From an uncultured virus (IMG/VR IMGVR_UViG_3300033066_001354) (taxonomy: Duplodnaviria; Heunggongvirae; Uroviricota; Caudoviricetes): a stretch of DNA of 40,580 bases. The DNA lies in IMG/VR virus record IMGVR_UViG_3300033066_001354. One strand, 5' to 3'. A program made the position numbers and the translations under genes. Shown here in pieces: positions 25,991 through 39,338 of this stretch. Position 1 is the first letter of the stretch. Each line of letters starts with the position of its first letter. The notes below the pieces were generated by a model, which did no database searches, was not told the origin of the DNA, and saw only the letters and a list, made by a program, of their open reading frames with translations.

Positions 25991-26012
25991 TGTTATATAC
26001 GTTGCGCCTGCA

Positions 26013-26258
26013 TCAAGTTGAGGATTTTCCGTGCCGCCAGTTGCCCGCTATCAATTCACCGCCTGGGTAGACCGCCATCTCGTCGCCAAGCGTGCAGAGG
26101 ACAGAATCGCCCGGGTGCGTGTCCGATTCGACAAAGTAAACCTGTCTCTTCTTGTAGTCTGGCTGGTTCGTGGCTTCCACGGCTTCGTACACCTGCCCTT
26201 CGTTAAGAACGATGTCAGTCCCGCTGAGCTTCACCGTCTGGAGCATTATGACTCTCAT
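26013..26258 (-). CDS. Hypothetical protein
   Basis: ATG 10 nt after the GTATA box. Confidence 0.75.
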   Translation of the reverse strand: MRVIMLQTVKLSGTDIVLNEGQVYEAVEATNQPDYKKRQVYFVESDTHPGDSVLCTLGDEMAVYPGGELIAGNWRHGKSST

Positions 26259-26277
26259 GTGTTTATACGCGTGTCAG

Positions 26278-26451
26278 TCAGGAATTTGAGGAATGTGCCC
26301 GCGCCATGTCAAATTCGTTGACTTCCAAAAGCCCACGTTTCGCCAGCGATTGAATCACTCGGCGGACGCTGGAATGGTACGTTTGCCAACGCCCCGCATA
26401 TCGTGTGAAGAAGTCCATAGCGTGCCGCTGTCGCCGTCCTAAGCCTTTCAT
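26278..26451 (-). CDS. Small basic hypothetical protein
   Basis: GGAGG upstream and ATGA coupling; MKGLGRRQ... Confidence 0.6.
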   Translation of the reverse strand: MKGLGRRQRHAMDFFTRYAGRWQTYHSSVRRVIQSLAKRGLLEVNEFDMARAHSSNS

Positions 26452-26618
26452 AACGCCTCCCAGGTGTAGCCTTCGCCGTTGTAAGGCACCGTTTTGTGAG
26501 CCCTGCCGTTGACGACTTGCCAATGACTGCCGTCTTCATGGACTTGGACGGTATGAGTCGTGATTTTGGAAGTGTTCCAGTAAGCGGTGAACGAAACTTT
26601 GTAAGTTCCTGGCTTCAT
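26448..26618 (-). CDS. Hypothetical 56-aa protein (not in ORF track)
   Basis: MKPGTYKVSFTAYW...YTWEAL; ATGA overlaps at both ends. Confidence 0.65.
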   Translation of the reverse strand: MKPGTYKVSFTAYWNTSKITTHTVQVHEDGSHWQVVNGRAHKTVPYNGEGYTWEAL

Positions 26619-26989
26619 GGATATATACGCTTCTTGAATTTGTTTTGAGGAAGATTGTCGTAAACGTCAACTGGGACGAAGAAAACTTCGGACAAGCCGC
26701 CAGGTAGAAAAACGTGAGTAGGTGATTCTGTCTCTTTGAACCAGTCCAGCCATTCTTGGCTTTTCAATCCGCCGTAGAACTCGGATTTGTTGGCTTCATA
26801 ATACGCCCTGATGTCCTCTGGAGCGTCGAACGGTTTAGACGTGACACACCAAATACCCTTGCTGTTCTCTCCGTCGTCATAGAGTCTGAACGGGAGGCGG
26901 CTGGACGATGCTTCCCATTTTCTGTGCGCGTCCTCTTTGATTTTTTTCAGTCCTGCTTCCGTCCAACGAGCCACTAGGTAGAACGCCAT
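26615..26989 (-). CDS. Hypothetical protein
   Basis: ATG 13 nt after the GTATA box. Confidence 0.75.
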   Translation of the reverse strand: MAFYLVARWTEAGLKKIKEDAHRKWEASSSRLPFRLYDDGENSKGIWCVTSKPFDAPEDIRAYYEANKSEFYGGLKSQEWLDWFKETESPTHVFLPGGLSEVFFVPVDVYDNLPQNKFKKRIYP

Positions 26990-27032
26990 GATAAATATAT
27001 ACTGGCATAGGTGGGAAAGATGAGGAAAAATC

Positions 27033-27062
27033 CGTGCGCCCTTATTTGTCCAAGCATTAAAT
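27033..27062 (+). repeat. dif/cer-like 30-bp site 1
   Basis: CGTGCGCCCTT ATTTGTCC AAGCATTAAAT. Confidence 0.9.
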
Positions 27063-27065
27063 TAC

Positions 27066-27347
27066 AGACGACGGCGAAGGGCTTTTCTGCGCCGTCCGCC
27101 GTCGTGATACATTTATGTCGCTGTGAGCTTTGAGTCGGTCAGAGTCGCCTTTGACTCTTACGTTTTTGGTCGTAGGACGCTTTTTCGTTCGCGTCAGTTG
27201 TGTTCCTTGGACGGGTCGCGTATCCGTCTGTCGGTGTTTGCCGTTGTTTGAGATTAAAGGGGTTGCTCACAGTTTACGCTTTAGCTCGTCTTCATGGCAC
27301 CCCTCCTGTTTTCTGTCTTGCCTGTCCTCTCTGCGATTGTCCCGCAC
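27066..27347 (-). ncRNA. Candidate structured RNA (may include micro-ORFs)
   Basis: Own promoter; CTGTGAGC/GCTCACAG closing stem enclosing four short hairpins; terminal hairpin 27068-27105. Confidence 0.5.
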
Positions 27348-27435
27348 TCTTATATACGGGGTTCGTCCGTTGGTTTGAGGAATGAGCCGCTTGCGTCAGT
27401 CGAGTCCTTTGCTTTTCTTTCGTTTCGCGTCCCAT
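27292..27435 (-). CDS. Small basic hypothetical protein (47 aa)
   Basis: ATG 10 nt after GTATA box; reads through the next promoter. Confidence 0.45.
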   Translation of the reverse strand: MGRETKEKQRTRLTQAAHSSNQRTNPVYKSAGQSQRGQARQKTGGVP

Positions 27436-27531
27436 GACAGTATACGCCGCCAGGATTATGGCTTGAGGAAAATTTCCTGAAAACGGCTGTTTTCCCATTT
27501 AGGAAACATAGTAAAAACAGGAAACATTTCG

Positions 27532-27561
27532 CGTGCCCCCTTATTTGACCAAGCGTTAAAC
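27532..27561 (+). repeat. dif/cer-like 30-bp site 2
   Basis: CGTGCCCCCTT ATTTGACC AAGCGTTAAAC. Confidence 0.9.
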
Positions 27562-27586
27562 TCCAGGATTTTCACCCTGGAGTTTT
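27558..27586. terminator. Intrinsic terminator (bidirectional-type)
   Basis: AAACTCCAGG...CCTGGAGTTTT abutting site 2, downstream of the 27599-28078 gene. Confidence 0.7.
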
Positions 27587-27598
27587 AGGTCGAAAGCC

Positions 27599-28078
27599 CT
27601 AGCGGACTTCCAGGACGTTTTCGAGCGAGATTCCGAAGAACCGCACCTGTCCCTTTTCTTCAAGGTCTTCCTTTTCGACCTTTTTTGGCGATTCCGAAGC
27701 CATTAGAAACGGGGCAACGTCCTCTTTTTTGCACGGTTCTCCGCCCAGGTACCATTGTGCCTTGGGTTCGTTGCCAGTGGCGACCACGCAAAGGTACACC
27801 TTGCCGTTTTTTCCCTGCCAAAACTTGACGTTGCCGATTTTGAAAGCATGGTCAATATGCACAGGGAGTTCGGGCTCGTCGCGCATTCCGTCTTCGACGG
27901 CGTTCTTGACAGGAGCGCGGTTGGCATAGTCACAGAGAATGCCTTGCATGACCGATTCTTTTTCGATGACCGCTCCGTCGTAGGATTTGTAGGTCTTGGC
28001 TTCGCGTCGGACAAGGACTGTGAAAAACTGTCCTGGCTTCTTGTCTGCGAGTTGGCTGGCGATTGTTTGCGCGTCCAT
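27599..28078 (-). CDS. Hypothetical protein
   Basis: 159 aa; ATG 10 nt after GTATA. Confidence 0.8.
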   Translation of the reverse strand: MDAQTIASQLADKKPGQFFTVLVRREAKTYKSYDGAVIEKESVMQGILCDYANRAPVKNAVEDGMRDEPELPVHIDHAFKIGNVKFWQGKNGKVYLCVVATGNEPKAQWYLGGEPCKKEDVAPFLMASESPKKVEKEDLEEKGQVRFFGISLENVLEVR

Positions 28079-28114
28079 GAATATATACCTGTCTGGCTGA
28101 AAACTTTGAGGAAA

Positions 28115-28372
28115 ACTGAAGCGACCGTCTATCTAACTACCTGTCTGTGCCTACTGACTAGCTTTCAGCGCAGACAACCACTGACCTTACCTTACCAGAC
28201 CTAGCGTACTATCAAAAGTTTCGCCCTCCGAGCTTCAATTCACGAAGTCTATAGGTCACCTCGTCTCTCATCCAGTGTCTGCTGGAACCAAGACGGTCGC
28301 TTTTAGTCAGTCAAAGCTACCTTTCCTATCATCACCGCAAGCGGTGGTTACTCAGCGGGCTTCTCGACTGAC
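28115..28372 (-). ncRNA. Candidate ~255-nt highly structured RNA
   Basis: Predicted +1 coincides with the first base of a 5' stem GTCAGTC/GACTGAC; 12-bp long-range helix AAGCGACCGTCT/AGACGGTCGCTT (28291-28302 with 28119-28130); no minus-strand ORF in the track. Confidence 0.7.
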
Positions 28373-28407
28373 AATAGTATATTGTCATAGGCGGAAGTTT
28401 TGAGGAA

Positions 28408-28437
28408 GTTTAGGACTTGGGCAAATAAGGCGGCACG
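28408..28437 (-). repeat. dif/cer-like 30-bp site 3 (inverted)
   Basis: Reverse complement CGTGCCGCCTT ATTTGCCC AAGTCCTAAAC. Confidence 0.88.
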
Positions 28438-28494
28438 TCCCATGTTTCCTCAAAAGTGGACGCCAGACAAGTATAGTCCTGTCTGGCGTTTTTG

Positions 28495-28662
28495 TCACCG
28501 TCTTCCCATTCTTCGTTGCTTCTTGCTGAGGTGTTTTTGGGGAGGTCGGAACTTTTGCTGTCTGTCGCTCCGTTTGAGGTCTTCCATCATTTTGATGTCG
28601 CTGGGATTGATTCCGAGTCCGCCGAGCATTCCGAGTGTGAGCAAAAGTGTGTTCCTTGCCAT
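28495..28662 (-). CDS. Hypothetical 55-aa protein (not in ORF track)
   Basis: MARNTLLLTLGMLGGLGINP...KKQRRMGRR; ATG 10 nt after GTATA. Confidence 0.7.
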   Translation of the reverse strand: MARNTLLLTLGMLGGLGINPSDIKMMEDLKRSDRQQKFRPPQKHLSKKQRRMGRR

Positions 28663-28678
28663 GTCTATATACTAAATT

Positions 28679-28975
28679 TCAGGATGGTTTTGAGGATTTC
28701 GACGGGAGTTTTACTCCCTTCAGGTGTTTTTTTGCACAGTCTGCGCCAACTTCGTACATACTGTAAACATCTTCGTCGGCGTTTTTGTCAAAGTCCACAA
28801 TTTCGCCGTCAATATGGTTGAGCATCACACTGAGCGCAGTCTTTAGGTTGACTTCTCGACCACAACAAATGCAATAGTTCAACGGTGTTCCTATTTCCGT
28901 CCTTTTGTTCCACCCTGTCTTTTTGCGGACTTCTTGAAGTAGTCCAGTGTGTTCTTTCATGTCCGGGTAGTTCAT
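28679..28975 (-). CDS. Hypothetical zinc-binding protein
   Basis: CICCGR...VGADC. Confidence 0.7.
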   Translation of the reverse strand: MNYPDMKEHTGLLQEVRKKTGWNKRTEIGTPLNYCICCGREVNLKTALSVMLNHIDGEIVDFDKNADEDVYSMYEVGADCAKKHLKGVKLPSKSSKPS

Positions 28976-29130
28976 TTGAGCACCTTGGGCGGCGAGACTC
29001 CGATGACACCTTCAATATGGACGACATTGCCGCATTTTTTGCAGTCGAACAAAATTCCGTATCTCAAACCTCGCGGTTTTCCTTTCGGGACTTCTCTGAC
29101 TGCTGGTGCGCTACAGTGTGGGCATCGCAT
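28972..29130 (-). CDS. Zinc-ribbon micro-protein, 52 aa (not in ORF track)
   Basis: MRCPHC...DCKKCG; ATG 10 nt after GTATA. Confidence 0.7.
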   Translation of the reverse strand: MRCPHCSAPAVREVPKGKPRGLRYGILFDCKKCGNVVHIEGVIGVSPPKVLK

Positions 29131-29167
29131 GGATATATACGCCTCTCAGCGGGTAATTTGAGGATTC

Positions 29168-29608
29168 TTAGACGAACCCGTAGTTTTTGCGGAGTTTCTT
29201 TGCATCGACCCGTGCCATGAGGTCTTTCTTCGTCACGTCGTCAGACGCGTAGAAAGTCAGTCCGAACGCCGAACGGATATAACCAATCTCCCTTCCAGTT
29301 TCGAGGTATTTGACAGCAAAGCCATAAAGCGCGTCCTCTGCCTTTTTGTTGCAAGCGATGACGCAACGGGTCTCGCCGCCGTCTCTGTTGAGTTGGTCAA
29401 CAATCATCACGTCAGAACCAAGAAAGAGGACTCCCATCGGTGCTGTCGCTTTAGGATTGATGACTTTACTGGCGTCTTCAAGAGCCTCGTCCACTTTGGC
29501 GACGACTTCGTTATAGTCGTTAACCTGGTCGATGCTTCCGATGGACAGTCCCCAATTTCGGGCTTCGAGCAGAGCGTCGGCTAGTTTGGCTTCGAGAGCG
29601 GTAGGCAT
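29168..29608 (-). CDS. Hypothetical protein
   Basis: ATG 10 nt after GTATA. Confidence 0.8.
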   Translation of the reverse strand: MPTALEAKLADALLEARNWGLSIGSIDQVNDYNEVVAKVDEALEDASKVINPKATAPMGVLFLGSDVMIVDQLNRDGGETRCVIACNKKAEDALYGFAVKYLETGREIGYIRSAFGLTFYASDDVTKKDLMARVDAKKLRKNYGFV

Positions 29609-29648
29609 GTTTTTATACTCTGGTGGATGGAAAATTTGAGGAAAAATC

Positions 29649-29678
29649 TGTGCGCCCTTTTTTCACCAAGCGTTAAAT
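29649..29678 (+). repeat. dif/cer-like 30-bp site 4
   Basis: TGTGCGCCCTT TTTTCACC AAGCGTTAAAT. Confidence 0.88.
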
Positions 29679-29681
29679 TGC

Positions 29682-30029
29682 AAAAAAGAAGAAGCCCAGC
29701 GCCGTTTCTGACACTGGACTTCTCATAGCGCTTCGGGGCGACCGCATCCCTACAGTTTCCTCTGTTAACCTGTCCAAGCCTTCCCTCTACGGTGGAGTTC
29801 TTTTTAACGGCTATTGATACCAGGGTCTTTGAGGACTCCACTACTAAGCCACAGAGTCAGTTTGGTGGACTTCGCTTCGGTTACCAGCCTCTACCGCACT
29901 ATTGTGTGCGCTCTGTGGTGATTTTGTTTTCTGTCTTGAGGCTGTCCGAGTCCGTTTGGTAAGACTTCGCCAGGGTTACCAGTCCTGACCGCGATATCTC
30001 ACAATTTCGCGCTCTTCTTTCCTCTCTTC
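29682..30029 (-). ncRNA. Candidate ~350-nt RNA with tandem kissing-loop motif
   Basis: Promoter without a start codon at +1; two covarying units (29948-30015 and 29849-29918); ends in GAAGTCCAGTGTC/GGCGCTGGGCTTC hairpin plus U-tract. Confidence 0.75.
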
Positions 30030-30067
30030 TCCTATATACGCACCTTGTTCGGAGGTTTGAGGAAAAG

Positions 30068-30304
30068 TCAGTTGACTGTCTGGGCGTTCGGGTCGCGTCC
30101 GTTCACCATGAACAACTCATAAGCGAACAAGCGGGACTCTGGCAGTTCGCCTGTAGCCCACTGTTTGTACCTGTCAGACACGCCGTCCTTACGCTTCCAC
30201 ATTTTGCCGCCACAAAGGTAGTGATGACGAAGGGCGCGGTCTTTCTCAGCGTTGGTGTAGTAACGGGGAGTCTCATCAACTAGCTGGATGATTGCAGTAG
30301 GCAT
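30068..30304 (-). CDS. Hypothetical protein
   Basis: Promoter-linked leaderless ATG. Confidence 0.75.
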   Translation of the reverse strand: MPTAIIQLVDETPRYYTNAEKDRALRHHYLCGGKMWKRKDGVSDRYKQWATGELPESRLFAYELFMVNGRDPNAQTVN

Positions 30305-30308
30305 GAGT

Positions 30309-30578
30309 TTATATCAAGCTGTCTGGAGAATTTGAGGAAACGAAGTCGTGCAAGTGTTGCAACTGTAAAGACCTGTCCCGCTCTCTTATGTCTTTGACGA
30401 CTAAAAGCCTGTCCATTTCGTGCCAAGAAACCAAGTCCCAAAGAGTCTCCACTCTTGCCCATCTTTTGCCCTCAGTCTCCCATGTTGGGGTAGTGACATA
30501 TCGGACTACTCCGTAGAACTTTCCAGTGACTCCCCACTCTACGATGTTTCCAGCTTTTACTGGGTCATTATGCCGCAT
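30309..30578 (-). CDS. Hypothetical protein (SH3/KOW-like beta pattern)
   Basis: VKAGNIVEW...GVV; coupled to the upstream gene. Confidence 0.6.
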   Translation of the reverse strand: MRHNDPVKAGNIVEWGVTGKFYGVVRYVTTPTWETEGKRWARVETLWDLVSWHEMDRLLVVKDIRERDRSLQLQHLHDFVSSNSPDSLI

Positions 30579-30843
30579 CGTCAAGCTTCGCCCTTTCAAA
30601 CGCTTCCCAGGTTTCGACGTAGCCCTTGCCGTTCACCCAGATTTTGTCAAAATCGTAATCGTCGGCACAGACTTCAGTGACATTGTTGCCAGTCGTGTCC
30701 ACAGACTTTTCGATGGCTTTCACGACGGCGGTGATAATTTCGTCCAAGTGTGAGTGTTTACTGTCGTAAATCTTGAAGCCGTTGAAATAGACCGCATTGT
30801 AATCGCAGTCCCCACCGTTCACTACAATAATATCGTTAGCCAT
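30568..30843 (-). CDS. Hypothetical protein
   Basis: Promoter-linked leaderless ATG. Confidence 0.75.
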   Translation of the reverse strand: MANDIIVVNGGDCDYNAVYFNGFKIYDSKHSHLDEIITAVVKAIEKSVDTTGNNVTEVCADDYDFDKIWVNGKGYVETWEAFERAKLDDAA

Positions 30844-30883
30844 GATTTTATACTATACCACAATTAAGTCTTGAGGAAAAATC

Positions 30884-30913
30884 CGTGCGGCCTTATTTGT
30901 CCAAGCGTTAAAT
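30884..30913 (+). repeat. dif/cer-like 30-bp site 5
   Basis: CGTGCGGCCTT ATTTGTCC AAGCGTTAAAT. Confidence 0.9.
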
Positions 30914-30920
30914 TATAGAC

Positions 30921-30947
30921 AAAAAACGCCCCGCTTTTGGCGGGGCG
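30921..30947 (-). terminator. Intrinsic terminator
   Basis: CGCCCCGC/GCGGGGCG stem followed by T6 on the minus strand. Confidence 0.85.
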
Positions 30948-30976
30948 ACTGTCATAAGGAGACAGAACTAAAACTG

Positions 30977-31288
30977 TCAGTTGATTCCGTGCGTCTTACC
31001 TGTTCTGTCCGTCGCGCCTTTCGACTGTGTGCGGCGCGGAGGGTCGTCATCAAGCGGGAAGGCAGTTTTGAGTGCATGGACAAAACCCGCCCATAGAAGG
31101 ATAAAACCAAAGGCTCCCTCCACGATGTATATGGCGTAAATCATCCCTTTGCCGAGCCAGAGGAAGTTTCCGTTCGAGTCGTAAGAAAAGAACGGGTCTA
31201 ACACTTTCTGCGTCAGAACGAATGCGAGTGCGACCAAAGCCATCAAACCGACGAGCTTCAATCTGTCCTGGTTGGTTTTGCTAACCAT
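30977..31288 (-). CDS. Membrane protein (2 TM)
   Basis: Start re-assigned to the ATG 10 nt after GTATA; two hydrophobic helices. Confidence 0.75.
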   Translation of the reverse strand: MVSKTNQDRLKLVGLMALVALAFVLTQKVLDPFFSYDSNGNFLWLGKGMIYAIYIVEGAFGFILLWAGFVHALKTAFPLDDDPPRRTQSKGATDRTGKTHGIN

Positions 31289-31325
31289 GTATTTATACCG
31301 TCCTGTGTGGAAAACTTGAGGAAAT

Positions 31326-31595
31326 TCAGGAGAAGTACGCATATTCGACCCGGGCGGTAGTGACAGTGTGCCAGCCCATTGTCAGATAAATTTCGTAGTC
31401 GAACCCTTCGACTTGTTCGTGAATTCGTCCTTCGTGCCCGCAGTACATTCCATCAAGCGCTTTTGATACGTTCGGGTTGATTTTGGCAGCTTTGTCCAGC
31501 CATTCTTGCAATGGGACGTTAGCGCCGATGCCTGTCAATTCCCTGTTGAGACTGTTCAACAACGACCGTTTTGTCTGTCGTTTCGGATTGTCCAT
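31326..31595 (-). CDS. Hypothetical protein
   Basis: Promoter-linked leaderless ATG. Confidence 0.75.
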   Translation of the reverse strand: MDNPKRQTKRSLLNSLNRELTGIGANVPLQEWLDKAAKINPNVSKALDGMYCGHEGRIHEQVEGFDYEIYLTMGWHTVTTARVEYAYFS

Positions 31596-31599
31596 GAAT

Positions 31600-31884
31600 T
31601 TATACCAAATCGGCTAGAGACTTTGAGGATTCTAGCTTCATGGTTCGAACGTAGTAGCCTTCTCCAAGGTACTTAACGTCGTTCCAGGCCAAACCAGATT
31701 CTTCCGGGGTGTTTGACACCACGGAGGGGCAAACTTCAGTACCGTCCGCCAAACGATAGACGGCAAAATTGCGAACCTTGCCAGGGTCGAGGGCATCGTT
31801 CATCGTTTCATACTTTTCTGACTTCCAAAGGTGGAAGGTCTTGCACTCCATTTTGGCGCTTCGCCACCCAAGGTTAAGACTCAT
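31600..31884 (-). CDS. Hypothetical protein
   Basis: Start re-assigned to the ATG 13 nt after GTATA. Confidence 0.7.
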   Translation of the reverse strand: MSLNLGWRSAKMECKTFHLWKSEKYETMNDALDPGKVRNFAVYRLADGTEVCPSVVSNTPEESGLAWNDVKYLGEGYYVRTMKLESSKSLADLV

Positions 31885-31921
31885 GACACTTTTATACCCG
31901 ACAAGACGTGTTTTTGAGGAT

Positions 31922-32161
31922 TTAATCGTTGAACACCGTCGTCCAATCTTCCTCTTCCACAAAGGACAGGTTTTCGCCGTTGAAGTCTTTCAGCATCAAT
32001 TTCGCGATACCTTGGGCGACTTCGGGCGTGGAGAACAAAATAGTCCTGTCGTCATAGCCCTTGACTTTAACAGTCAGCATTCCTTTGGGCTCTGCGCCGA
32101 CATGGGTAACGTCAGCCACCATCACCGTCACGCCGTTTTTTGCAGTCTCGTTCAAAAGCAT
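31922..32161 (-). CDS. Hypothetical protein
   Basis: Promoter-linked leaderless ATG. Confidence 0.75.
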   Translation of the reverse strand: MLLNETAKNGVTVMVADVTHVGAEPKGMLTVKVKGYDDRTILFSTPEVAQGIAKLMLKDFNGENLSFVEEEDWTTVFND

Positions 32162-32195
32162 GTTTTTATACTCTCCTAGATGTTGAATTTGAGGA

Positions 32196-32411
32196 TTACT
32201 TCCCCGTAGCCTTGACGAAGTTGTCAGGTGTGCAAACTCCTGGCGTCCCGTATCGCCCGCCCATGTTCAAAGCCCAATGTCCAGGAGATTTGATGACAGC
32301 TTTACCACTTGCTTCTTTCCACTCTACACCGTTTCGCCCGCGCCCGTTCGGGACAAGGATTGTCACTCTGTCGCCAAACTTGATTTCGTTGAAACTTGCT
32401 CTGGTAGCCAT
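32196..32411 (-). CDS. Hypothetical protein
   Basis: Promoter-linked leaderless ATG. Confidence 0.75.
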   Translation of the reverse strand: MATRASFNEIKFGDRVTILVPNGRGRNGVEWKEASGKAVIKSPGHWALNMGGRYGTPGVCTPDNFVKATGK

Positions 32412-32446
32412 GACTATATACTGGTGTGGGTAAAAGTTTGAGGATT

Positions 32447-32677
32447 TTACGCCACAACTTTTCTGTCAGTCCAATAGCCAAGAATTGCCACAGGACACGG
32501 GATTTCGTCAATGATGGCGAATTTAGTACCATTACCGTCTCTGCCTCTGTTGACTGCCTCAAGGCTCTTTACCAATTCACGGGCTGTCTCTGGTGTGCCC
32601 ATGTGGTTCTGTATCCAACCGCCGCCCACGTTGCCGTTCTCGCGCACCCTGTCCACGTTGATGATGCTAAATTTCAC
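32447..32677 (-). CDS. Hypothetical protein
   Basis: GTG 10 nt after the GTATG box. Confidence 0.7.
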   Translation of the reverse strand: MKFSIINVDRVRENGNVGGGWIQNHMGTPETARELVKSLEAVNRGRDGNGTKFAIIDEIPCPVAILGYWTDRKVVA

Positions 32678-32687
32678 ACTTTCATAC

Positions 32688-33149
32688 TCAGACAGACGAA
32701 AGTTTTGAGGAAGATGAGAACAGCTTCCCTTTAGAAATGTCTTTGAACAATGCGGCTGGGTCTTCAATCGAAGTAGCACGGTTAAGGTGTCCGCTAGTGC
32801 CAGACAAGCGCACAATTTCATTTTCTTCTGTAAAGAGGTATGCATACTTGTTGGGTACGCCTGTGATGACTAGTGGCTGGTGCGTCTTAATTTGCAGTGT
32901 CTTGAGGTTAGGGTAATACTTCTGCAAACGTGGGAACAATTGGTGACACTCTATGCAATTAATCCAACGTTCTGGAAACACCAAGATTATTTCAGTCGTC
33001 TGGTCATCGACCTTTTGTTCCTTGAACAAATTGCGCAGGTATTTCTGCCCGACGAATTGCTCGTACTCAAAGTCGTCTGCCAAAAAATCTGGACGACGAT
33101 AGATGAACACTTCGCAACGCTCCAGTCCATCAAACCAACTTTCAGCCAT
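32688..33149 (-). CDS. Hypothetical protein (weak resemblance to the C-terminal half of an ABC-type ATPase)
   Basis: IILVFPERWI...IKTHQPLVI; promoter upstream. Confidence 0.65.
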   Translation of the reverse strand: MAESWFDGLERCEVFIYRRPDFLADDFEYEQFVGQKYLRNLFKEQKVDDQTTEIILVFPERWINCIECHQLFPRLQKYYPNLKTLQIKTHQPLVITGVPNKYAYLFTEENEIVRLSGTSGHLNRATSIEDPAALFKDISKGKLFSSSSKLSSV

Positions 33150-33191
33150 ATGCGTACATAACAAGCATGCATTGAGATATGAGGAAAAATC

Positions 33192-33221
33192 CGTACGGTC
33201 TTATTTGTCCAAGCACTAAAA
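33192..33221 (+). repeat. dif/cer-like 30-bp site 6
   Basis: CGTACGGTCTT ATTTGTCC AAGCACTAAAA. Confidence 0.85.
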
Positions 33222-33257
33222 AAGCAGACCGTTTCCAGTCTGCCTTTCGCCGTCCGC

Positions 33258-33404
33258 TTATCGCTTCGGAAGGTTGCCCGCGCCGTTGAAAATCGCGTCT
33301 GCCAAGTTTTGGTAGCTCAGTCGTCGCTTGTCTGCGAGGGTCATCTTTCGAGGTCGTTTGTTGGACTCTTGGTCTCTGTTGCGGATGGACTTAGGTTGTG
33401 CCAT
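33258..33404 (-). CDS. Basic 48-aa protein (not in ORF track)
   Basis: MAQPKSIRNRDQ...NLPKR; ATG 10 nt after GTATA; terminator 33218-33243 downstream. Confidence 0.7.
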   Translation of the reverse strand: MAQPKSIRNRDQESNKRPRKMTLADKRRLSYQNLADAIFNGAGNLPKR

Positions 33405-33423
33405 GAACATATACACTTTTGAC

Positions 33424-33870
33424 TCACACGGTTGAGGAATTTTTGGGCGCGTATGTCCAGCCGCCGTTGCCGTAAGGCACCCAACCCTTAAGCCGTCCCA
33501 TCTTCATACTGACGACTTCAATCAACCTGGCGTCTGGGTGGTCGCGGTGTGGTGTGCCGTCTATCGGACACTTGCGATAGTTAGCCTTTGGTAAAGTTTC
33601 ATTGTGTTCGTTGTCAAAGTATTCGTACACCAGGGTACACCCTATGTTTGACCCGCACGACGTTGTGACGATGAAGACTTCGCCGCTTTCTAAGTAAAAC
33701 CGAAGCCGACAGTCCCCGCGCTTCAAACGTCGCATTGTAACTTTGACGCCGAAGAACTCTTGCATGACTTTAGACAAAAGTTCACAAGTCGATGGCACAT
33801 AGTTATAGATGCCTTCATAAGTAAAGTCTGTCGGGTATGTCCTGTATATAGGGTCGTTGACTGATGCCAT
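33424..33870 (-). CDS. Hypothetical protein
   Basis: Start re-assigned to the ATG 10 nt after GTATA (MASVNDP...). Confidence 0.75.
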   Translation of the reverse strand: MASVNDPIYRTYPTDFTYEGIYNYVPSTCELLSKVMQEFFGVKVTMRRLKRGDCRLRFYLESGEVFIVTTSCGSNIGCTLVYEYFDNEHNETLPKANYRKCPIDGTPHRDHPDARLIEVVSMKMGRLKGWVPYGNGGWTYAPKNSSTV

Positions 33871-33968
33871 GCGTCTATACCCAGCGCCGACAAAGCAATG
33901 AGGAATTTGACCACTTTTATACGCAGCGGCAGCAGCGGTTTGAGGATTTTCGCTGCACAAATTTTTCG

Positions 33969-33998
33969 CGTGCCCCCTTATTTCCCCAAGCCTTAATC
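33969..33998 (+). repeat. dif/cer-like 30-bp site 7
   Basis: CGTGCCCCCTT ATTTCCCC AAGCCTTAATC. Confidence 0.88.
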
Positions 33999-34023
33999 CC
34001 CGTGGCGAACGGGGTGGCTTGCG

Positions 34024-34308
34024 TCACTGACTAAGGAACTGCTGGGCTTCTGCGCCGAGTTGTTGCATTTCGGAGTAAAAGCGTTGTTGCATGTCCCCTA
34101 GTTTGTCCTGTTCCTGTGGGATTCGGCACTCCAAAGACTCAATTTCCTCTTTTTGCGAATCTGTAGGATTACTGAGTTTGTGAAGGTCGTCCAACACTTC
34201 TTGCATACCCAGGACAGTGGAGACTTGAGCATTGAGTCTCACCTCGCGCTCTTTCGCTTCGTTGTCCAAGATTACTTGTGCGACTTGACAGAGATACGTC
34301 GTAGCCAT
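34024..34308 (-). CDS. Coiled-coil hypothetical protein
   Basis: Start re-assigned (MATTYLC...) by promoter position. Confidence 0.7.
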   Translation of the reverse strand: MATTYLCQVAQVILDNEAKEREVRLNAQVSTVLGMQEVLDDLHKLSNPTDSQKEEIESLECRIPQEQDKLGDMQQRFYSEMQQLGAEAQQFLSQ

Positions 34309-34401
34309 GTTCATATATAGACACTGTTCCACAATTTGAGGAAAATCTGTCAGTGTGGATTGTAAATTCCTCATATCAAGCATGATTGGCAGTATATGGA
34401 C

Positions 34402-35055
34402 ATGGTTAACACCATCGAGGGCGATTGGAGCGACGTTGCTTGGCTTACAGTCAGTCAGAACCCAGTCCCTGTCAGCAAAAGCGTCGAATTCCCGGAACAG
34501 CCAGACGGAATGACTTATGGCGAATACCATAAGTTGCATAAAATTTGCACATACCTTGACCCGAACGGCAAACGAAGCGGCTTGCGTTGTGTCGCGTTCT
34601 ACCCTTACGAACACCTGACGGTAGGCGGGGCGTTGCGAATCATGATGTTCCACTTTCCCGATGAGTCGTACTATAACGAGCTTTCAATGGCGTTTATGGC
34701 GCGGCATTGCACGGGCTATGGCGATGCTGGGTTGATGCCCACCCTGGAAGAAGTCAAGAACGGCATTCACAGGGCCTTAAATCCGCCTGTATTCACTCCG
34801 AGGCGCATTATAGCGCAACGTTGTGTCAGAAGCGGTGATTTTCGCGTAGTCATATGGAAGAAGCCAGACGACCCCAAATTCCCACACATCAAACTGGAGG
34901 GGCGTGAATTGTTGCTACTGCCTAAGAAGGCGTTCGGAGTGGAAGAAGAAGGCGAATACCTGTACATCTTTGACGAAACAGACAGCAAAAACGACAGAAT
35001 CACCGAAGTCAAGGATAAATTGGAACGCGGGGTTATTGTACTGAAATACGCTTAA
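34402..35055 (+). CDS. Hypothetical protein
   Basis: Divergent promoter at 34368; ATG 10 nt after GTATA. Confidence 0.75.
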   Translation: MVNTIEGDWSDVAWLTVSQNPVPVSKSVEFPEQPDGMTYGEYHKLHKICTYLDPNGKRSGLRCVAFYPYEHLTVGGALRIMMFHFPDESYYNELSMAFMARHCTGYGDAGLMPTLEEVKNGIHRALNPPVFTPRRIIAQRCVRSGDFRVVIWKKPDDPKFPHIKLEGRELLLLPKKAFGVEEEGEYLYIFDETDSKNDRITEVKDKLERGVIVLKYA

Positions 35056-35065
35056 GCGTATTTCA
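35042..35065. terminator. Perfect 24-bp palindrome over a stop codon (terminator or binding site)
   Basis: TGAAATACGCTTAAGCGTATTTCA. Confidence 0.55.
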
Positions 35066-35082
35066 ATTTGTGGAACATGGGG

Positions 35083-35112
35083 CGTGCCGCCTTATTCTCC
35101 CAAGTCTTATTC
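35083..35112 (+). repeat. dif/cer-like 30-bp site 8
   Basis: CGTGCCGCCTT ATTCTCCC AAGTCTTATTC. Confidence 0.85.
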
Positions 35113-35162
35113 ACACAGGTAAAAATCCTCAAACTTAGCCGGTGATAGGGTATATATCTGTT

Positions 35163-36047
35163 ATGGCGGCAAAGCAGACAGCATACGAAGCAATCACAGC
35201 GACCATCATTGCAGCCCTTGAAGCTGGCGAAGTGGCTTGGCAGAAGCCCTGGAATTCGAAAGCGCCGTGCAACGCAATCACAGGCAAAGCCTACCGTGGC
35301 GTCAATCCGTTTTTGCTCGTCCTTGCGTCAAAGTCGTACACTGACAATCGCTGGTTGACGTTCCCACAAGCTAAAGAACTAGGCGGAAGTGTCAAGTCGG
35401 GCGAAAAGGGAACTTGGATTGTCTACTCATCCCAAATCCCTACCAAAGAAGACCCTAAAAAGTCGTTTTGGCTTATGAGGCGGTACTGTGTTTTCAACAT
35501 CGAACAGTGCGAAAACTTGGAGAAACTTCCGCCGCTTGAAGTCGTCAACCAAGACACTGACCCGAACATTCTAGCCGAAGAATTGGTGGCTAAGTACACA
35601 GACGCGCCGCCCGTGACCTTTGGTGGCGGCATAGCTTGCTACCGACCTTCAACCGATGAAGTGAACATGCCCAACCGCGCCGACTTCAACGGAAACCCAG
35701 AATTTTATTCAACATTGTTCCATGAGTTCGCACATTCTACAGGACATGAGAAACGACTCAACCGAAAGTCACTCACGGAACATGACGGGTTTGGAGGGTA
35801 CAACTACTCTAACGAAGAGTTGGTGGCGGAGTTCGCCGCCGCGTTCATGATGGCAGAATGTGGTATGGACATGCCTGTCAAAGACAATACCGTAGCCTAC
35901 CTGCAAAGTTGGATAAAAGCCTTGAAGAACGACCCGACACTAGTGGTCAAAGCGGCAAGTGCGGCACAAAAGGCGGCTGATTACATGAAGGGCGTGACGG
36001 TCGCCAAGGACGCCGAAGATACCGAGAAAGAAACGGTTGCGGCATAG
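35163..36047 (+). CDS. ardC: ArdC-family antirestriction / ssDNA-binding protein with zincin-like domain
   Basis: WQKPW, N.ITGKAYRGVN, WLTFPQA..LGGSVKSGEKG, VFNIEQ, HEFAHSTGH...RLNR, EELVAE, YLQSWI. Confidence 0.92.
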   Translation: MAAKQTAYEAITATIIAALEAGEVAWQKPWNSKAPCNAITGKAYRGVNPFLLVLASKSYTDNRWLTFPQAKELGGSVKSGEKGTWIVYSSQIPTKEDPKKSFWLMRRYCVFNIEQCENLEKLPPLEVVNQDTDPNILAEELVAKYTDAPPVTFGGGIACYRPSTDEVNMPNRADFNGNPEFYSTLFHEFAHSTGHEKRLNRKSLTEHDGFGGYNYSNEELVAEFAAAFMMAECGMDMPVKDNTVAYLQSWIKALKNDPTLVVKAASAAQKAADYMKGVTVAKDAEDTEKETVAA

Positions 36048-36054
36048 TCAAAAA

Positions 36055-36078
36055 AATCCCAGGCTTCGGTCTGGGATT
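36055..36078. terminator. Intrinsic terminator after ardC
   Basis: AATCCCAGGC-TTCG-GTCTGGGATT hairpin. Confidence 0.75.
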
Positions 36079-36144
36079 AAGACTTGGGAGAATAAGGATG
36101 CACGCAAAATTCCTCAAACATCTCACCGGCATGAGTACATATCT

Positions 36145-36522
36145 ATGAGCGCAACGCTTTATCTGGCAGACGGCACAAAGCAAGAAATCGTGCCTGCCAA
36201 CGGGACGGACTTCAAAGCGGACGAGTTGTACAAGCTTTTGGGCTGTGACACTCTTGAGGTGATTGATACGGGCGACCCTGTGATGATTATGATTGGTGAC
36301 GAGAATTCGCGCCTGGACGACGAGTGTGTCATCAACATGGAGGCTACGCGCATCTACCGCGAAGGTCATGGCATCTTGGGCGACCCTTGGAAGCACAAAG
36401 AAGCCGCTTTAGCACGCATGAAGGAAATGTACGGGGATGCTTTTATCGACTGCTCAGACGGTGGAGAGCCTTACACAATCGTCGGCAACATCGTGTACTG
36501 TCCAACTGGGATGCTAAAGTAG
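36145..36522 (+). CDS. DUF3846-like phage protein
   Basis: ELYKLLGCDTLEVI...IGDENSRL...NMEAT...IVGNIVYC; start set by promoter. Confidence 0.65.
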   Translation: MSATLYLADGTKQEIVPANGTDFKADELYKLLGCDTLEVIDTGDPVMIMIGDENSRLDDECVINMEATRIYREGHGILGDPWKHKEAALARMKEMYGDAFIDCSDGGEPYTIVGNIVYCPTGMLK

Positions 36523-36561
36523 TTTCCTCAAACAATTTGCCAAGGGGAGTACATAAACAAC

Positions 36562-36774
36562 ATGATTTACTTCGTGACAACCAGCGGTGTCGAACACAAC
36601 ACGCACATTCATTGCCCCTGCCCTGTCAAACCCGAAGAAGTGGAAGAAGTGCAGGCAGACGGTGACGAGCTTGAGTACATCAGGAACGAAATGAACGGCA
36701 TCCCCATGTCACGCGGGCGAGTCGTCCGATGGTTCGGTGACTTCGCCAAATTCATCGCCGCCAACTGGGACTGA
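36562..36774 (+). CDS. Hypothetical protein
   Basis: ATG 13 nt after GTACA box; hairpin CCGCACA/TGTGCGG 36781-36797 downstream. Confidence 0.75.
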   Translation: MIYFVTTSGVEHNTHIHCPCPVKPEEVEEVQADGDELEYIRNEMNGIPMSRGRVVRWFGDFAKFIAANWD

Positions 36775-36821
36775 AAACAGCCGCACATTTTGTGCGGTTT
36801 CGTTTTGAGGAAAAGTCAGAC

Positions 36822-36851
36822 CGTGCCCCCTTATTTCTCCAAGCGTTAAAA
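36822..36851 (+). repeat. dif/cer-like 30-bp site 9
   Basis: CGTGCCCCCTT ATTTCTCC AAGCGTTAAAA. Confidence 0.9.
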
Positions 36852-36877
36852 GCCCGGGCTTTTAACCCAGGCTTTTT
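36848..36877. terminator. Intrinsic terminator (bidirectional-type)
   Basis: AAAAGCCCGGG...CCCAGGCTTTTT abutting site 9. Confidence 0.7.
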
Positions 36878-36879
36878 GC

Positions 36880-37107
36880 TTACGCCGTGACTTTACAAAT
36901 CCACGCCTCTTGTGCCACTCGGTCGCGGAAAAAGTGGTTCTCGTTCACAGTTTGTAAAAGGGCGAGGTTTGTGACGAAGAACGAGGGTTCAAAACCGAAA
37001 GCCTTGAGATACTCTGCCAAGACCTTATTGTCGTCCGAAGTGTCGAAGCAGGGATGCTCTGCGTCCTGCATCATTTGAATCATGGCGGCTTTTGTTGCGG
37101 CGTCCAT
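36880..37107 (-). CDS. Hypothetical protein
   Basis: Promoter-linked leaderless ATG. Confidence 0.75.
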   Translation of the reverse strand: MDAATKAAMIQMMQDAEHPCFDTSDDNKVLAEYLKAFGFEPSFFVTNLALLQTVNENHFFRDRVAQEAWICKVTA

Positions 37108-37143
37108 GTGTATGTACTGACACTGGTAAAAGTTTTGAGGAAT

Positions 37144-37581
37144 CTAGCTTATCACTCTGACGGACTTGAACGGTGCGCCCATGACAGCCTCACCGCCTCT
37201 TGAGGCGCGAGTCTTGAGTTCAAGGTGGCATGGCACCCATCCAGTGCTTTTGCCGACGACAAAACGCCTGCGCTCGTCCCACTTGTCCACAACCTCGACG
37301 TGCTTTCCTTCCAAGCCGACAAGTTGGGATGTCAACTCTGTCGGACACTTTTCGCCAGTAGCTTCAAACCTGACCCTGCAAAGTTGGACGAGTTCTTGGA
37401 ACCTGTCATATCCCTGCGTGGTTCCCCAATACGACGAGTTTGGAGGCTCGACACCAAGCCATTCAGCCATCTTCACCGAACGCTCTTGACACACGTCGAA
37501 ACCCAAACAAGTGTATCCAGCATCAAACCCGATGACGAACAAATTGCGAGTGTTGTCAAGGGTGATAGTGTTTTTGCCCAT
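37144..37581 (-). CDS. Hypothetical protein
   Basis: Start re-assigned (MGKNT...); LVGLEG...RRFVVGKSTGWVPCHLE...SRGG. Confidence 0.75.
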   Translation of the reverse strand: MGKNTITLDNTRNLFVIGFDAGYTCLGFDVCQERSVKMAEWLGVEPPNSSYWGTTQGYDRFQELVQLCRVRFEATGEKCPTELTSQLVGLEGKHVEVVDKWDERRRFVVGKSTGWVPCHLELKTRASRGGEAVMGAPFKSVRVIS

Positions 37582-37615
37582 GTATGTATACCTTTTCAAC
37601 CGACCAATTTGAGGA

Positions 37616-37846
37616 TTATGGCACAATCAACGACGTGACATCAATGGGGGTTTTGGTCTTATAGTCCAGGACTGTCGCGACCGGACGACTATTGTCATGA
37701 GACGACACTAGATGACATTCCATGCCAGACACCATAATCGTCCTACCGAGAGGAGACATGTCGGTAGAGAGTATCTTGGTCTCCTCGATTCGTCCGTTTG
37801 GATGTTGCAGACATACGTGCAAACAGGGATTAAAGTAATGGCTCAC
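37616..37846 (-). CDS. Hypothetical protein
   Basis: GTG 12 nt after GTATA. Confidence 0.65.
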   Translation of the reverse strand: MSHYFNPCLHVCLQHPNGRIEETKILSTDMSPLGRTIMVSGMECHLVSSHDNSRPVATVLDYKTKTPIDVTSLIVP

Positions 37847-37995
37847 GGTTTTTTATACACGTGCCATTTTTTTATTTGAGGAAGATAGCTAATTGCCGTC
37901 CTCACCAGGTATAAATGCAAAAAAGTCAAAAAAGTATCGGAGACAGCCTTATTTTTTGGCGTTCTCAGTGGCATATATACATGTAGGGCAAAACA

Positions 37996-38409
37996 ATGAC
38001 TTGGTACTCGGGAAATCTTCGGAAACTCTATCACAAAGAGTTCGGCATTCCAACAGCGGCCGAAACTGTCGTAGGCAAATTGCCTTTGGAATATTCACAG
38101 CACGCGCTTCACGCTGCTCAAGACGACAGATACGGGAACATCATCAATTTACCGAGAATACTCGATACTTCCAAGGCTCAGGTGATTGAAGTAGAGATGG
38201 AGGGCGACCGTACCACTAAAGTCCTTTACAGAGTCCCTTACAACGATACACACGATTTAGTCCTCGCTGTCATGCCTGACGGGTTTGTGAAGACTGTCTG
38301 GCTAAACGCCCATGATGATTTACACAACACGCTTGATGCTTCACGTTACGAAATTCTAAATCCTCCAGCCGAGGAGATTCAGCCAGAGGAAGCAGAACAG
38401 GTCGCCTAG
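37996..38409 (+). CDS. Hypothetical protein, possible RelE/BECR-like fold
   Basis: YSQHAL...DLVLAV...VKTVW pattern. Confidence 0.55.
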   Translation: MTWYSGNLRKLYHKEFGIPTAAETVVGKLPLEYSQHALHAAQDDRYGNIINLPRILDTSKAQVIEVEMEGDRTTKVLYRVPYNDTHDLVLAVMPDGFVKTVWLNAHDDLHNTLDASRYEILNPPAEEIQPEEAEQVA

Positions 38410-38594
38410 TCGTCCCAGTCGCCGTACTTGGCTCTGCGCTCTTCTCGGCGTTTCTGTGAGCGGGAGTACGAATCGTCCTGTTTGTGAACCTCGTTCCGAA
38501 AATGGCGTTGGTCAGAGCCGCTTCGAGTCGAGAAAAGTCCAGGGTTGCGGTCGCGGAGTTCTTTGCCGCGCTTGGTCATTCGCTTTTGTTTCAT
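38406..38594 (-). CDS. Small basic hypothetical protein
   Basis: ATG 13 nt after ATATA box. Confidence 0.65.
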   Translation of the reverse strand: MKQKRMTKRGKELRDRNPGLFSTRSGSDQRHFRNEVHKQDDSYSRSQKRREERRAKYGDWDD

Positions 38595-38644
38595 GACACT
38601 ATTATATCCTTGTCGAACGTGTTTGTGAGGAATTTTCCTTCACG

Positions 38645-38995
38645 TCAGTCGATTTTTCCGTAATGTTCAGTGAAGTTGAGGCTTGCTTTGCTGTCTCGTA
38701 GATGAATCAACACCTCTTCCTTCAATGCTTTCACCATTTCTGACGGAATTTTGATTCCCTTGGATTCATTGGCGTGAAGATATTTTTCCACCTTCTCGAC
38801 TGCAATGTCCACTCCGTTCAAGCCGTAATCAGCGACACTCCAGTTGTTCATAATGGAGTCGAAACCGGGCGCTTCGTCTGTTTCTTCGTCTTCTGGCTCG
38901 TCTTTCAACAACACTTGTGCGAACACATATGACAATGGTCGGTCAACGCCGATGCAAACGGTGTATTTTTCGGTCTCTGCTGTGTGCCGTGACAT
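38645..38995 (-). CDS. Hypothetical protein
   Basis: Promoter-linked leaderless ATG. Confidence 0.75.
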   Translation of the reverse strand: MSRHTAETEKYTVCIGVDRPLSYVFAQVLLKDEPEDEETDEAPGFDSIMNNWSVADYGLNGVDIAVEKVEKYLHANESKGIKIPSEMVKALKEEVLIHLRDSKASLNFTEHYGKID

Positions 38996-39014
38996 GTGTA
39001 TATACCTGTCTGTG

Positions 39015-39338
39015 TCAAAAATTTGAGGAATTTTGCTCTGCTTCCAGCAAATGCTTTGTCGAAATCAGTTCCTTAATTCTGTTTTCACGAGACAGCTTCC
39101 ACGCGTCAAGGTCTTCTAACGCTTTTTCATAAGCGTCTGCGCGTTTGTCGTAATAGTCTTTATTCCAATGCGAGGAATAACAGGAAGTCACCTTGTCGGT
39201 GTCGCGGTCAGAAAACTTCATGACATGAGACAGTTTTTCATCATAACCAATGAACACCAGCTTAGAAATTGATTCTGGTGCGCCGTCGAGCCCGCGCTCT
39301 ATCTTCCAAAACTTTTGACCAATGGTAGGATTGACCAT
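39015..39338 (-). CDS. Hypothetical protein
   Basis: Start re-assigned (MVNPT...) by promoter position. Confidence 0.7.
   Translation of the reverse strand: MVNPTIGQKFWKIERGLDGAPESISKLVFIGYDEKLSHVMKFSDRDTDKVTSCYSSHWNKDYYDKRADAYEKALEDLDAWKLSRENRIKELISTKHLLEAEQNSSNF

Follow-up and report, generated by a model that had tools for sequence, protein, structure and literature searches.

Probable genes for two small folded non-coding RNAs in a promoter-headed slot of an uncultured large phage

A slot in the genome of an uncultured virus (Caudoviricetes; IMG/VR record IMGVR_UViG_3300033066_001354) probably encodes two non-coding RNA modules of a large phage, both small and folded, which we call RNA-A and RNA-C. 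We put the probability of this reading at about 0.6, and regard it as highly probable that a real structured RNA gene lies here. The slot is on the minus strand, at 28372-28115 of a 40,580-nt stretch of DNA that we refer to as the window. An original prediction, made from the sequence of the window, had placed a novel phage non-coding RNA of two structured domains in this slot. Conservation and covariation among related phages, and the lack of a match in Rfam, support that prediction. The strong evidence for the RNAs is comparative, not energetic, and the comparison argues that the two domains are parts that can be taken apart.

Results

A promoter-headed slot without a gene-sized open reading frame

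From about 26 to 39.4 kb, the minus strand of the window is an array of small genes, every one of which begins with an identical head signal: (T/A)TCCTCAAA, 16-17 bases, (G)TATAnA, three bases and ATG. The pattern TCCTCAA-N17-19-TAYA has 32 matches in the window, falling at 30 distinct sites against 0.07 expected, and none of 100 shuffles reaches this count. ATG stands exactly 5 nt past TAYA at 19 of the 30 sites and 8 nt past it at three, and the open reading frames (ORFs) opened at those 22 sites are 47-294 aa long. GTG is present at four sites, a start codon is absent at three, and at the site heading the RNA slot (28406) the sole start is a TTG that opens eight codons. Because ATG is placed in this way, we read the mRNAs of the array (26000-39400, minus strand) as leaderless, with +1 at the A of ATG; 22 of the 30 sites have ATG at this inferred +1 or 3 nt beyond it. 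No Shine-Dalgarno motif is visible upstream of 16 array genes that we inspected. The upstream box, TTCCTCAAA, does not resemble the -35 hexamer of sigma-70; these promoters may therefore be read by a factor of the phage or by an unusual sigma factor of the host. A generic scan of 27400-28800 for sigma-70 promoters and terminators was uninformative for promoters of this type.

The promoter of the RNA slot occupies 28376-28407 and consists of the box TTCCTCAAA (28407-28399), a 17-nt spacer and the -10 element TATACT (28381-28376). Deduced from the leaderless-ATG rule, its +1 would be G 28372, the first base of the 5' domain and of the helix GTCAGTC.../...GACTGAC. This is where the original prediction had put it, and the count of 30 sites indicates that the promoter rule behind that placement is real. 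The 3' limit of the slot is set by the next promoter (28082-28113, minus strand; TTCCTCAAA at 28113-28105, TATATA at 28087-28082), which serves a leaderless gene for a 159-aa protein (27599-28078, ATG at 28078). The slot does end before this promoter, whose box begins at 28113, as had been noted. It contains no gene-sized ORF on either strand, and its longest sense ORF has 19 codons.

RNA-A is conserved in related phages

Homologs of the RNA were identified by permissive blastn against six metagenomic loci, L001-L006. These loci came from a scan with an alignment of the protein family of the 159-aa neighbor, in which 8 of 87 pattern matches were confirmed and gave six distinct loci. The neighbor has 10 homologs at 45-69% identity (11 proteins including itself at E ≤ 0.001, among 32 candidates). 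RNA-A, the 3' domain of the original prediction (28121-28300, minus strand, 180 nt), has full homologs in L002 (667-851; 70% over 203 nt, E 3e-27), L001 (2489-2678; 68% over 196 nt, E 2e-17) and L004 (183-366; 64% over 197 nt, E 1e-12). A piece comprising only the 3' end, cut by the contig end, is present in L006 (4-49; 79% over 48 nt, E 2e-4). In L002, L004 and L001, a promoter of the slot's type precedes RNA-A, and the +1 given by the rule falls no more than 2 bases from the first base of the closing helix. A covariance model (R1) of the four full copies (window, L001, L002 and L004; alignment A5) gives them 167-211 bits; elsewhere in 72,372 bases its best score does not exceed 11.4 bits, so there is one RNA-A copy per phage piece.

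Broader searches yielded no further relatives. Neither blastn of 27000-30000 nor tblastn of the 159-aa neighbor matched GenBank phages. Protein patterns run against IMG/VR returned 21 and then 16 candidate stretches, none of them confirmed, and an exact 22-mer of RNA-C and the element found upstream of the promoters each had 0 matches there. A strict three-block RNA-A pattern had 0 matches in IMG/VR and 0 in GTDB genomes. A relaxed two-block pattern gave 8 and 27 loci, and by R1 none of these 35 rose above noise (best 9.2 bits, E 0.12). One sequencing run (X5) contains a diverged relative with 17 differing letters and one gap over 28314-28451, which makes no contribution to covariation.

The helices of RNA-A covary

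The consensus of RNA-A is multibranched. Its 10-bp closing helix, P1 (28300-28291 with 28130-28121), has 7 of 10 pairs changed on both sides among the four copies. In the window, the last two A of a UAAAA linker (28301-28305, minus strand) that joins the modules can extend P1 to the perfect 12-bp helix (28302-28291 with 28130-28119) seen in the original prediction. Within P1 lies the P2 hairpin, UCCAG-CAGACA-CUGGA (28271-28286), whose five pairs are 100% paired, three of them changed on both sides; in L002 and L004 the stem reads CUGG/CCAG, a flipped form, and the loop is conserved as CAGA(C/A)A. Next is a first invariant unpaired block, AGACGAGG (28259-28266), identical in all four copies. 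The stretch that follows, 28258-28226, is variable and not reliably alignable, and no common helix was aligned there. Helix 3, the central hairpin (28203-28225; GGCG.AAC with AGU.CGCU), has seven pairs, 89% paired and five changed on both sides. A possible helix 4 (28201-28197 with 28187-28183) is 94.7% paired and has no both-side change in its five pairs. The second invariant block, AAGGUAAGGU (28184-28193; 4 of 4 copies), partly overlaps it. The P5 hairpin (28142-28176; UGUCUGCGCU / GGCACAGACA, eight pairs, 87.5% paired, four changed on both sides) bears a 15-nt apical loop, and a third invariant block, AGGUAGUUAGA (28132-28142), lies just 5' of the 3' strand of P1 in all four copies. The spacing between AAGGUAAGGU and AGGUAGUUAGA is a constant 41 bases across the four.

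Counted on A5 with the RNAalifold consensus and the loop hexamer described below, RNA-A has 38 pairs. Pairing is possible in 94.0% of 151 cells, and 21 of the 38 pairs have changed on both sides, which bears out the covariation expected among homologs of a folded RNA. None of 500 shuffles does as well, and controls in which the pairing was slid are 29-42% paired, with at most seven both-side pairs. Covariation thus appears to support the five helices of RNA-A, with helix 4 undecided. Among the internal stems named in the original prediction, CCAG/CTGG (P2) and TGTCTG/CAGACA (P5) are upheld by compensatory change. The third, TGACCT/AGGTCA, is present in the window sequence and finds no support in the relatives, with 75% of cells paired and 249 of 500 shuffles as good.

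Two further features of the alignment speak to function at the RNA level. G-U accounts for 18 of the 142 paired cells in RNA-A, and the opposite strand would therefore pair in only 82%; the strand indicated in this way agrees with that of the promoter. In addition, invariant columns are more frequent among unpaired positions (52 of 115) than among paired ones (26 of 76).

A self-complementary hexamer in the P5 loop

The apical loop of P5 contains a self-complementary hexamer, GCUAGU, at 28162-28157 (minus strand). Its counterparts are GCGCGU in L002, AUGCAU in L004 and AGCGCU in L001, so that the hexamer differs in sequence in all four copies and is self-complementary in all four, with two of its three pair positions changed on both sides. 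Among the 153 ungapped six-column windows of A5, only two are self-complementary in every copy: this hexamer and the invariant UAGUUA. A six-base palindrome cannot fold on itself, and the hexamer is without a conserved partner elsewhere in RNA-A. The local GCU/AGU pairing present in the minimum free energy (MFE) fold of the window copy fails, by inspection of A5, in the other three. Two of the hexamers are self-complementary only through G-U and so are not DNA palindromes. The simplest reading suggested by these sequences is a loop-loop contact between two copies of RNA-A, and the hexamer is accordingly a proposed kissing-loop site; we put dimerization through it at somewhat short of an even chance.

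RNA-A and RNA-C as separable modules

RNA-C, the 5' domain of the original prediction (28306-28372, minus strand, 67 nt), has a closing helix, GUCAGUCGA/UUUGACUGAC, followed by GAGAAG and by the inner hairpin CACCGC-UU-GCGGUG, the same hairpin that had been picked out in the window. Two motifs are invariant, GAGAAG following the helix and CUUGC within the inner hairpin. All 29 cells of the closing helix are paired, and both sides have changed in 4 of its 10 pairs, which 10 of 500 shuffles equal. Homologs of RNA-C occur in L001 (2687-2767), 3' of RNA-A and followed by UUUCAUUU; in L002 (3879-3954), alone, with its own promoter and just upstream of the gene for the 159-aa protein; and in L006 (55-95), truncated at the next promoter. 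RNA-C does not adjoin RNA-A in L002 or L004. Because RNA-A and RNA-C are found in both orders and also apart, what was taken for a 255-nt "two-domain RNA" in the window is a junction of two modules. From these arrangements, RNA-A and RNA-C are separable modules: both folded domains of the original prediction stand, and their union in one fixed RNA does not.

Folding energy and searches for known families

The whole 258-nt slot folds to an MFE of -86.7 kcal/mol, compared with -76.9 +/- 5.2 in shuffled controls (z -1.89), of which 8 of 200 do as well. The 3' domain alone (RNA-A) has z -2.12, with 3 of 200 shuffles as good, and the 5' domain alone (RNA-C) has z -3.14, with 1 of 200. Comparison with shuffled controls, which had been proposed as a check on the RNA, is thus weak when taken alone.

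Against Rfam 15 (4227 models, with a match defined as a score at or above the family's gathering score), the whole window gave no match. At E ≤ 10 over 27900-28700 there were four junk matches, all on the plus strand at 28390-28637, outside the RNA and none scoring more than 16.9 bits, where the cut-offs are 45-80. Over L001-L006, five matches appeared at E ≤ 1, none at the positions of RNA-A, RNA-C or RNA-B, a further candidate described below. ARAGORN found no tRNA or tmRNA in the 40.6-kb window and none in L001-L006. These results agree with the original prediction, which saw no hallmarks of tRNA or tmRNA in the slot and took the RNA to be novel. A weak Rfam tmRNA match does occur in L001 (1216-1277, plus strand; 18.6 bits, E 9e-4, where the gathering score is 47), and ARAGORN finds no tmRNA in that locus.

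Two named RNA classes were considered individually and rejected. CUGAGUA...GAAA in RNA-C and GAUGAG in RNA-A misfit the hammerhead core, and no Rfam match supports one. 6S RNA, about 180 nt long, is a rod-like and largely double-stranded molecule whose large central bubble imitates an open promoter. The consensus of RNA-A instead branches into five helices connected by long unpaired strands, and RNA-A again has no Rfam match. We found no published description of the RNA, which was looked for only indirectly, through Rfam and word searches of the literature. RNA-A and RNA-C are two new RNA families of a known general kind.

Neighboring genes and the 3' side of RNA-A

RNA-A keeps different company in different phages. 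In the window, the next unit is the gene for the 159-aa protein. L004 has a Zn-ribbon gene there and L002 a small hydrophobic ORF, and in L001 RNA-C comes next, with a Zn-ribbon gene after it. In the relatives, RNA-A lies 1.3-3.8 kb from the homolog of the 27599-28078 gene, beside other genes, and RNA-A, RNA-C and the neighboring genes occur in different orders across the window, L001, L002, L004 and L006. RNA-A is therefore not the leader of the gene for the 159-aa protein, and the concern that it might be an unconserved leader of that gene falls away. The genes downstream of RNA-A each have their own promoter, with ATG at +1, an arrangement that favors an RNA acting in trans. In L001, a U-rich tail follows RNA-C, and the unit does not run into a gene. 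Hairpins with T-runs precede several promoters of the window (e.g. 28489-28460 and 27585-27555); none follows its RNA-A.

AACCA stands directly after the closing helix of RNA-A in L002 (852-856) and L004 (367-371), and after RNA-B in L001 (3917-3921) and L004 (3914-3918). Together with the flush 5' end of the helix, it resembles a tRNA-style N-CCA end. At this position the window copy of RNA-A has UUCAG and the L001 copy GCCCA, so AACCA is not general.

The 159-aa neighbor (27599-28078, minus strand) belongs to a family of 11 proteins with no Pfam or PHROG match. Its AlphaFold model has a mean predicted local distance difference test (pLDDT) score of 82, and Foldseek against the PDB gave no match at E ≤ 0.001. 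As a candidate RNA partner it was set aside: it has no catalogued family and no fold match, and its linkage to RNA-A is not conserved.

The phage itself is large, with a contig of 164,580 bases on record that carries the neighbor gene. The window encodes a tyrosyl-tRNA synthetase, a UDP-glucose dehydrogenase, an ArdC-type anti-restriction protein and a major head protein, and among cultured phages, Bacillus phage G has the nearest capsid protein (34% identity).

Other elements of the array and further candidate RNA slots

A conserved element, CTTGG-N-AAATAAGGNGGCACG, is found some 10-25 nt upstream of many promoter boxes, mostly right after a terminator hairpin and in either orientation. The window has 12 matches with at most three mismatches (0.85 expected), among them 28423-28437 (minus), 27532-27546 (plus), 33969-33983 (plus) and 36822-36836 (plus), and the element also occurs in L001, L004, L005 and L006. 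A complete promoter-like site is present on the opposite strand at 28447-28475 (plus), with its -10 inside the loop of the hairpin 28489-28460, which reads as a terminator both ways. This site would drive an RNA antisense to a 55-codon gene (28495-28662).

Three other slots may hold RNAs. RNA-B, about 180 nt, promoter-driven and unrelated to RNA-A, lies directly upstream of the gene for the 159-aa protein in L001 (3735-3916) and L004 (3741-3913) and is missing from the window. Its fold has z -4.36 and -3.75 in L001 and L004, respectively, and in neither case does any of 200 shuffles match it. Its closing helix of 16-17 bp and a hairpin both have compensatory changes between the two copies; one loop has UCUAGA, and Rfam gave no match to RNA-B. 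RNA-D, about 340 nt (window 29688-30029, minus strand, promoter box at 30064), occupies a slot without a start codon. It contains two copies of a unit of about 65 nt (GCGC-hairpin, GUAGAGG, ...GCGAAG..., CAAAC.GACUC), and a terminator hairpin of 15 bp with a U-run forms its end (fold z -2.27; 1 of 100 shuffles as good); a homologous pair of units with its own promoter is present in L002 at about 150-335 (72% over 78 nt, E 5e-7). Finally, at 27060-27347 (minus strand), promoter 27382 is followed by a 26-codon GTG ORF, about 200 nt of A-rich sequence and a GC-rich hairpin end. This is possibly an RNA slot, and it has no homolog in the six loci.

Discussion

Our data suggest how the slot could work. 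RNA-A and RNA-C would be transcribed on the minus strand from one of the phage's own strong promoters, of the early-gene type. In each module the terminal helix clamps the 5' and 3' ends together, and could both protect the ends and mark them for processing. RNA-A is the conserved core, comprising five helices, three invariant purine-rich unpaired blocks and the self-complementary loop hexamer, and may accumulate early in infection as an abundant, free RNA that acts in trans. Through a kissing contact of the hexamer, it could form a symmetric homodimer. The invariant unpaired blocks may hold a protein or a small ligand, which would make RNA-A a decoy or scaffold during host takeover or in counter-defense. 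A role in protein binding, or as a decoy, is one that we propose with considerable doubt. The idea of an anti-Shine-Dalgarno sponge was dropped, since the genes here have no Shine-Dalgarno motif before them.

Several observations weigh against this reading. The RNA-A family consists of four full sequences from related phages, so few that shuffle controls overstate significance; the slid control and the count of double changes are better guides, and both are clear. Folding energy is unremarkable in two of the four copies (L002 z -0.78, L001 z -0.68), and thermodynamics by itself, as the z-score of the whole slot indicates, is weak evidence for the RNA. As a contact, the hexamer is short, at 4-6 bp, and requires a terminal G-U in two of the four copies. 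Nothing points to a particular protein partner, and when the three invariant blocks and the P2 loop were compared with the 40-kb window, the best antisense duplexes were no better than those of shuffled blocks. An ATG ORF lies inside RNA-A in three of the four copies, with 19 codons in the window. Finally, no intrinsic terminator was found after RNA-A in the window, L002 or L004. A free RNA would thus need processing, or termination at the closing helix, and the RNA may be just the 5' part of a longer transcript.

One alternative is that RNA-A, with or without RNA-C, is a cis-acting leader of a read-through transcript and works, for instance, by antitermination of the processive kind, by attenuation or as a riboswitch. 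We consider this unlikely. The missing terminator speaks for it, the 3' strand of the closing helix abuts the next promoter, and the long invariant unpaired blocks could form a ligand pocket. However, the gene downstream differs from phage to phage and has a promoter of its own with ATG at +1. In the absence of a Shine-Dalgarno motif, a copy of its mRNA with a long leader would be poorly translated. Moreover, the L001 unit ends in RNA-C and a U-rich tail instead of a gene, and no riboswitch or leader family of Rfam matches.

That the unit is instead the mRNA of a micropeptide is much less likely still. The ORF in question, MRDEVTYRLRELKLGGRNF (MRDEV...; 28212-28271, ATG at 28271, minus strand), has 19 codons in the window, 18 in L002 and 26 in L004. 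It begins at the identical column of A5 in these three copies, and between L002 and L004 a -1 and a +1 indel together restore the frame. L001, though, has ACG for ATG and unrelated sequence downstream, and codon differences between the window and L002 are nearly all nonsynonymous by a hand count on A5. Its first codons are fixed at all three codon positions, as is the invariant block AGACGAGG, and P2 pairs the first base of the ATG. The ATG is also 30-100 nt from +1, with no ribosome-binding motif, in an array whose promoters mostly put ATG at the start of the transcript. The remaining alternative, which we judge the least probable, assigns no RNA function to the slot. It would be a decayed cassette, or a site of recombination or replication that acts as DNA and merely bears inverted repeats. 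Shuffling of cassettes at promoters between the relatives, as in the recombination described for T4-type promoter-early stem-loop (PeSL) cassettes (PMC2839356), would fit such an element, as would the modest MFE z-scores. Against it stand the preservation of 21 of 38 pairs by changes on both sides, the 18 G-U cells that make the structure strand-specific, unlike double-stranded DNA, the two hexamers that need G-U, and unpaired blocks that are better conserved than the stems.

The reading of the slot as two non-coding RNA modules can be set beside several known systems. By the mechanism that we propose, RNA-A comes nearest to kissing-loop dimerization sites and to the phi29 pRNA. The HIV-1 DIS is a kissing-loop dimerization site with a six-base self-complementary apical loop that is flanked by purines and is variable, yet stays self-complementary. 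The RNA-A hexamer shares this pattern: it lies in an apical loop, is flanked by purines, and is self-complementary through sequence change in four of four copies, with the loop closed by the covarying P5. The molecule and its biology are entirely different, however; the RNA-A loop is 15 nt, and the dimer is one predicted from sequence. The phi29 pRNA has two domains. It is 174 nt long and forms multimers by loop-loop pairing (PMC2241910; PMC4201828), and in those accounts it resembles RNA-A as a phage RNA of about 170-180 nt for which intermolecular loop pairing is proposed, with loops that vary and remain complementary. The pRNA as described there pairs its CE and D loops hand in hand to form a ring on the portal, whereas in RNA-A the one self-complementary hexamer leads us to predict a symmetric dimer. 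Two mutually complementary loops were not found in RNA-A: P5 contains a complement to the P2 loop CAGACA in the window copy, but in none of the relatives. In addition, the phage studied here is large (at least 164 kb) and, with a capsid nearest that of Bacillus phage G, is not phi29-like; at E ≤ 10, Rfam gave no match to the RNA.

ROOL, GOLLD, OLE, manA and EGFOA are RNA families catalogued in Rfam. ROOL, GOLLD and OLE are reported as phage-associated RNAs that form RNA-only homo-oligomers (PMC12286853), and the manA and EGFOA motifs, shorter than 200 nt, as capable of RNA-only assembly (bioRxiv 10.64898/2026.07.01.735769); RNA dimerization in general has been reviewed (PMC7357161). In the structural descriptions cited, all are structured RNAs of unknown function with RNA-RNA contacts that include kissing loops, as would hold for RNA-A. 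RNA-A differs in matching nothing in Rfam and in having one candidate interface only, itself a prediction. The nearest in kind are RNAC and RNAD of T4. These small stable RNAs come from the tRNA region of that phage, and the cited account lists their roles as unknown (PMC3014915). Like RNA-A and RNA-C, they are small phage-encoded non-coding RNAs with, as far as that account goes, no known function and no base-pairing target. In T4 they belong to a tRNA cluster, whereas the modules described here have their own promoters in an array of small genes of early type, with no tRNA genes in the 40.6-kb window or the six loci. No similarity to RNAC or RNAD in sequence or model is detectable, in the sense only that nothing in Rfam matched.

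The organization of the array has a parallel in the PeSL cassettes of T4-type phages (PMC2839356; PMC4122927). In those arrays, as described, nearly the same strong promoter heads every small unit, and related phages gain, lose and rearrange the units at these repeats. The 30 promoter sites of the window, and the reordering of units among the window, L001, L002, L004 and L006, fit this picture of mobile cassettes. PeSLs, as those papers present them, flank protein ORFans and consist of a sigma-70-like promoter and a terminator hairpin. The array studied here is unlike them in its unusual upstream box TTCCTCAAA, its apparently leaderless mRNAs, its RNA cargo and a slot without a canonical terminator.

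Phage-encoded structured RNAs without a coding or base-pairing role are, to our knowledge, few, and none has a settled function. We entertain, as a speculative possibility, that RNA-A founds a new class of phage RNAs shorter than 200 nt, in which a palindromic kissing loop that covaries would build a symmetric dimer, or some larger assembly, of RNA alone. An uncultured lineage of large phages with leaderless mRNAs would then carry at least four RNA genes, unrelated to one another (A, B, C and D), as promoter cassettes that can be permuted freely among its early genes, and these genes may form an RNA-based toolkit for host takeover or counter-defense instead of being isolated curiosities. At 180 nt, RNA-A is short enough for direct structural work, and it makes a simple, falsifiable prediction, dimerization via one hexamer. 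More broadly, the slot indicates that RNA genes, and not protein ORFans alone, travel as promoter-headed cassettes that can be joined in either order. This bears on the evolution of phage early regions and on the annotation of their "empty" slots.

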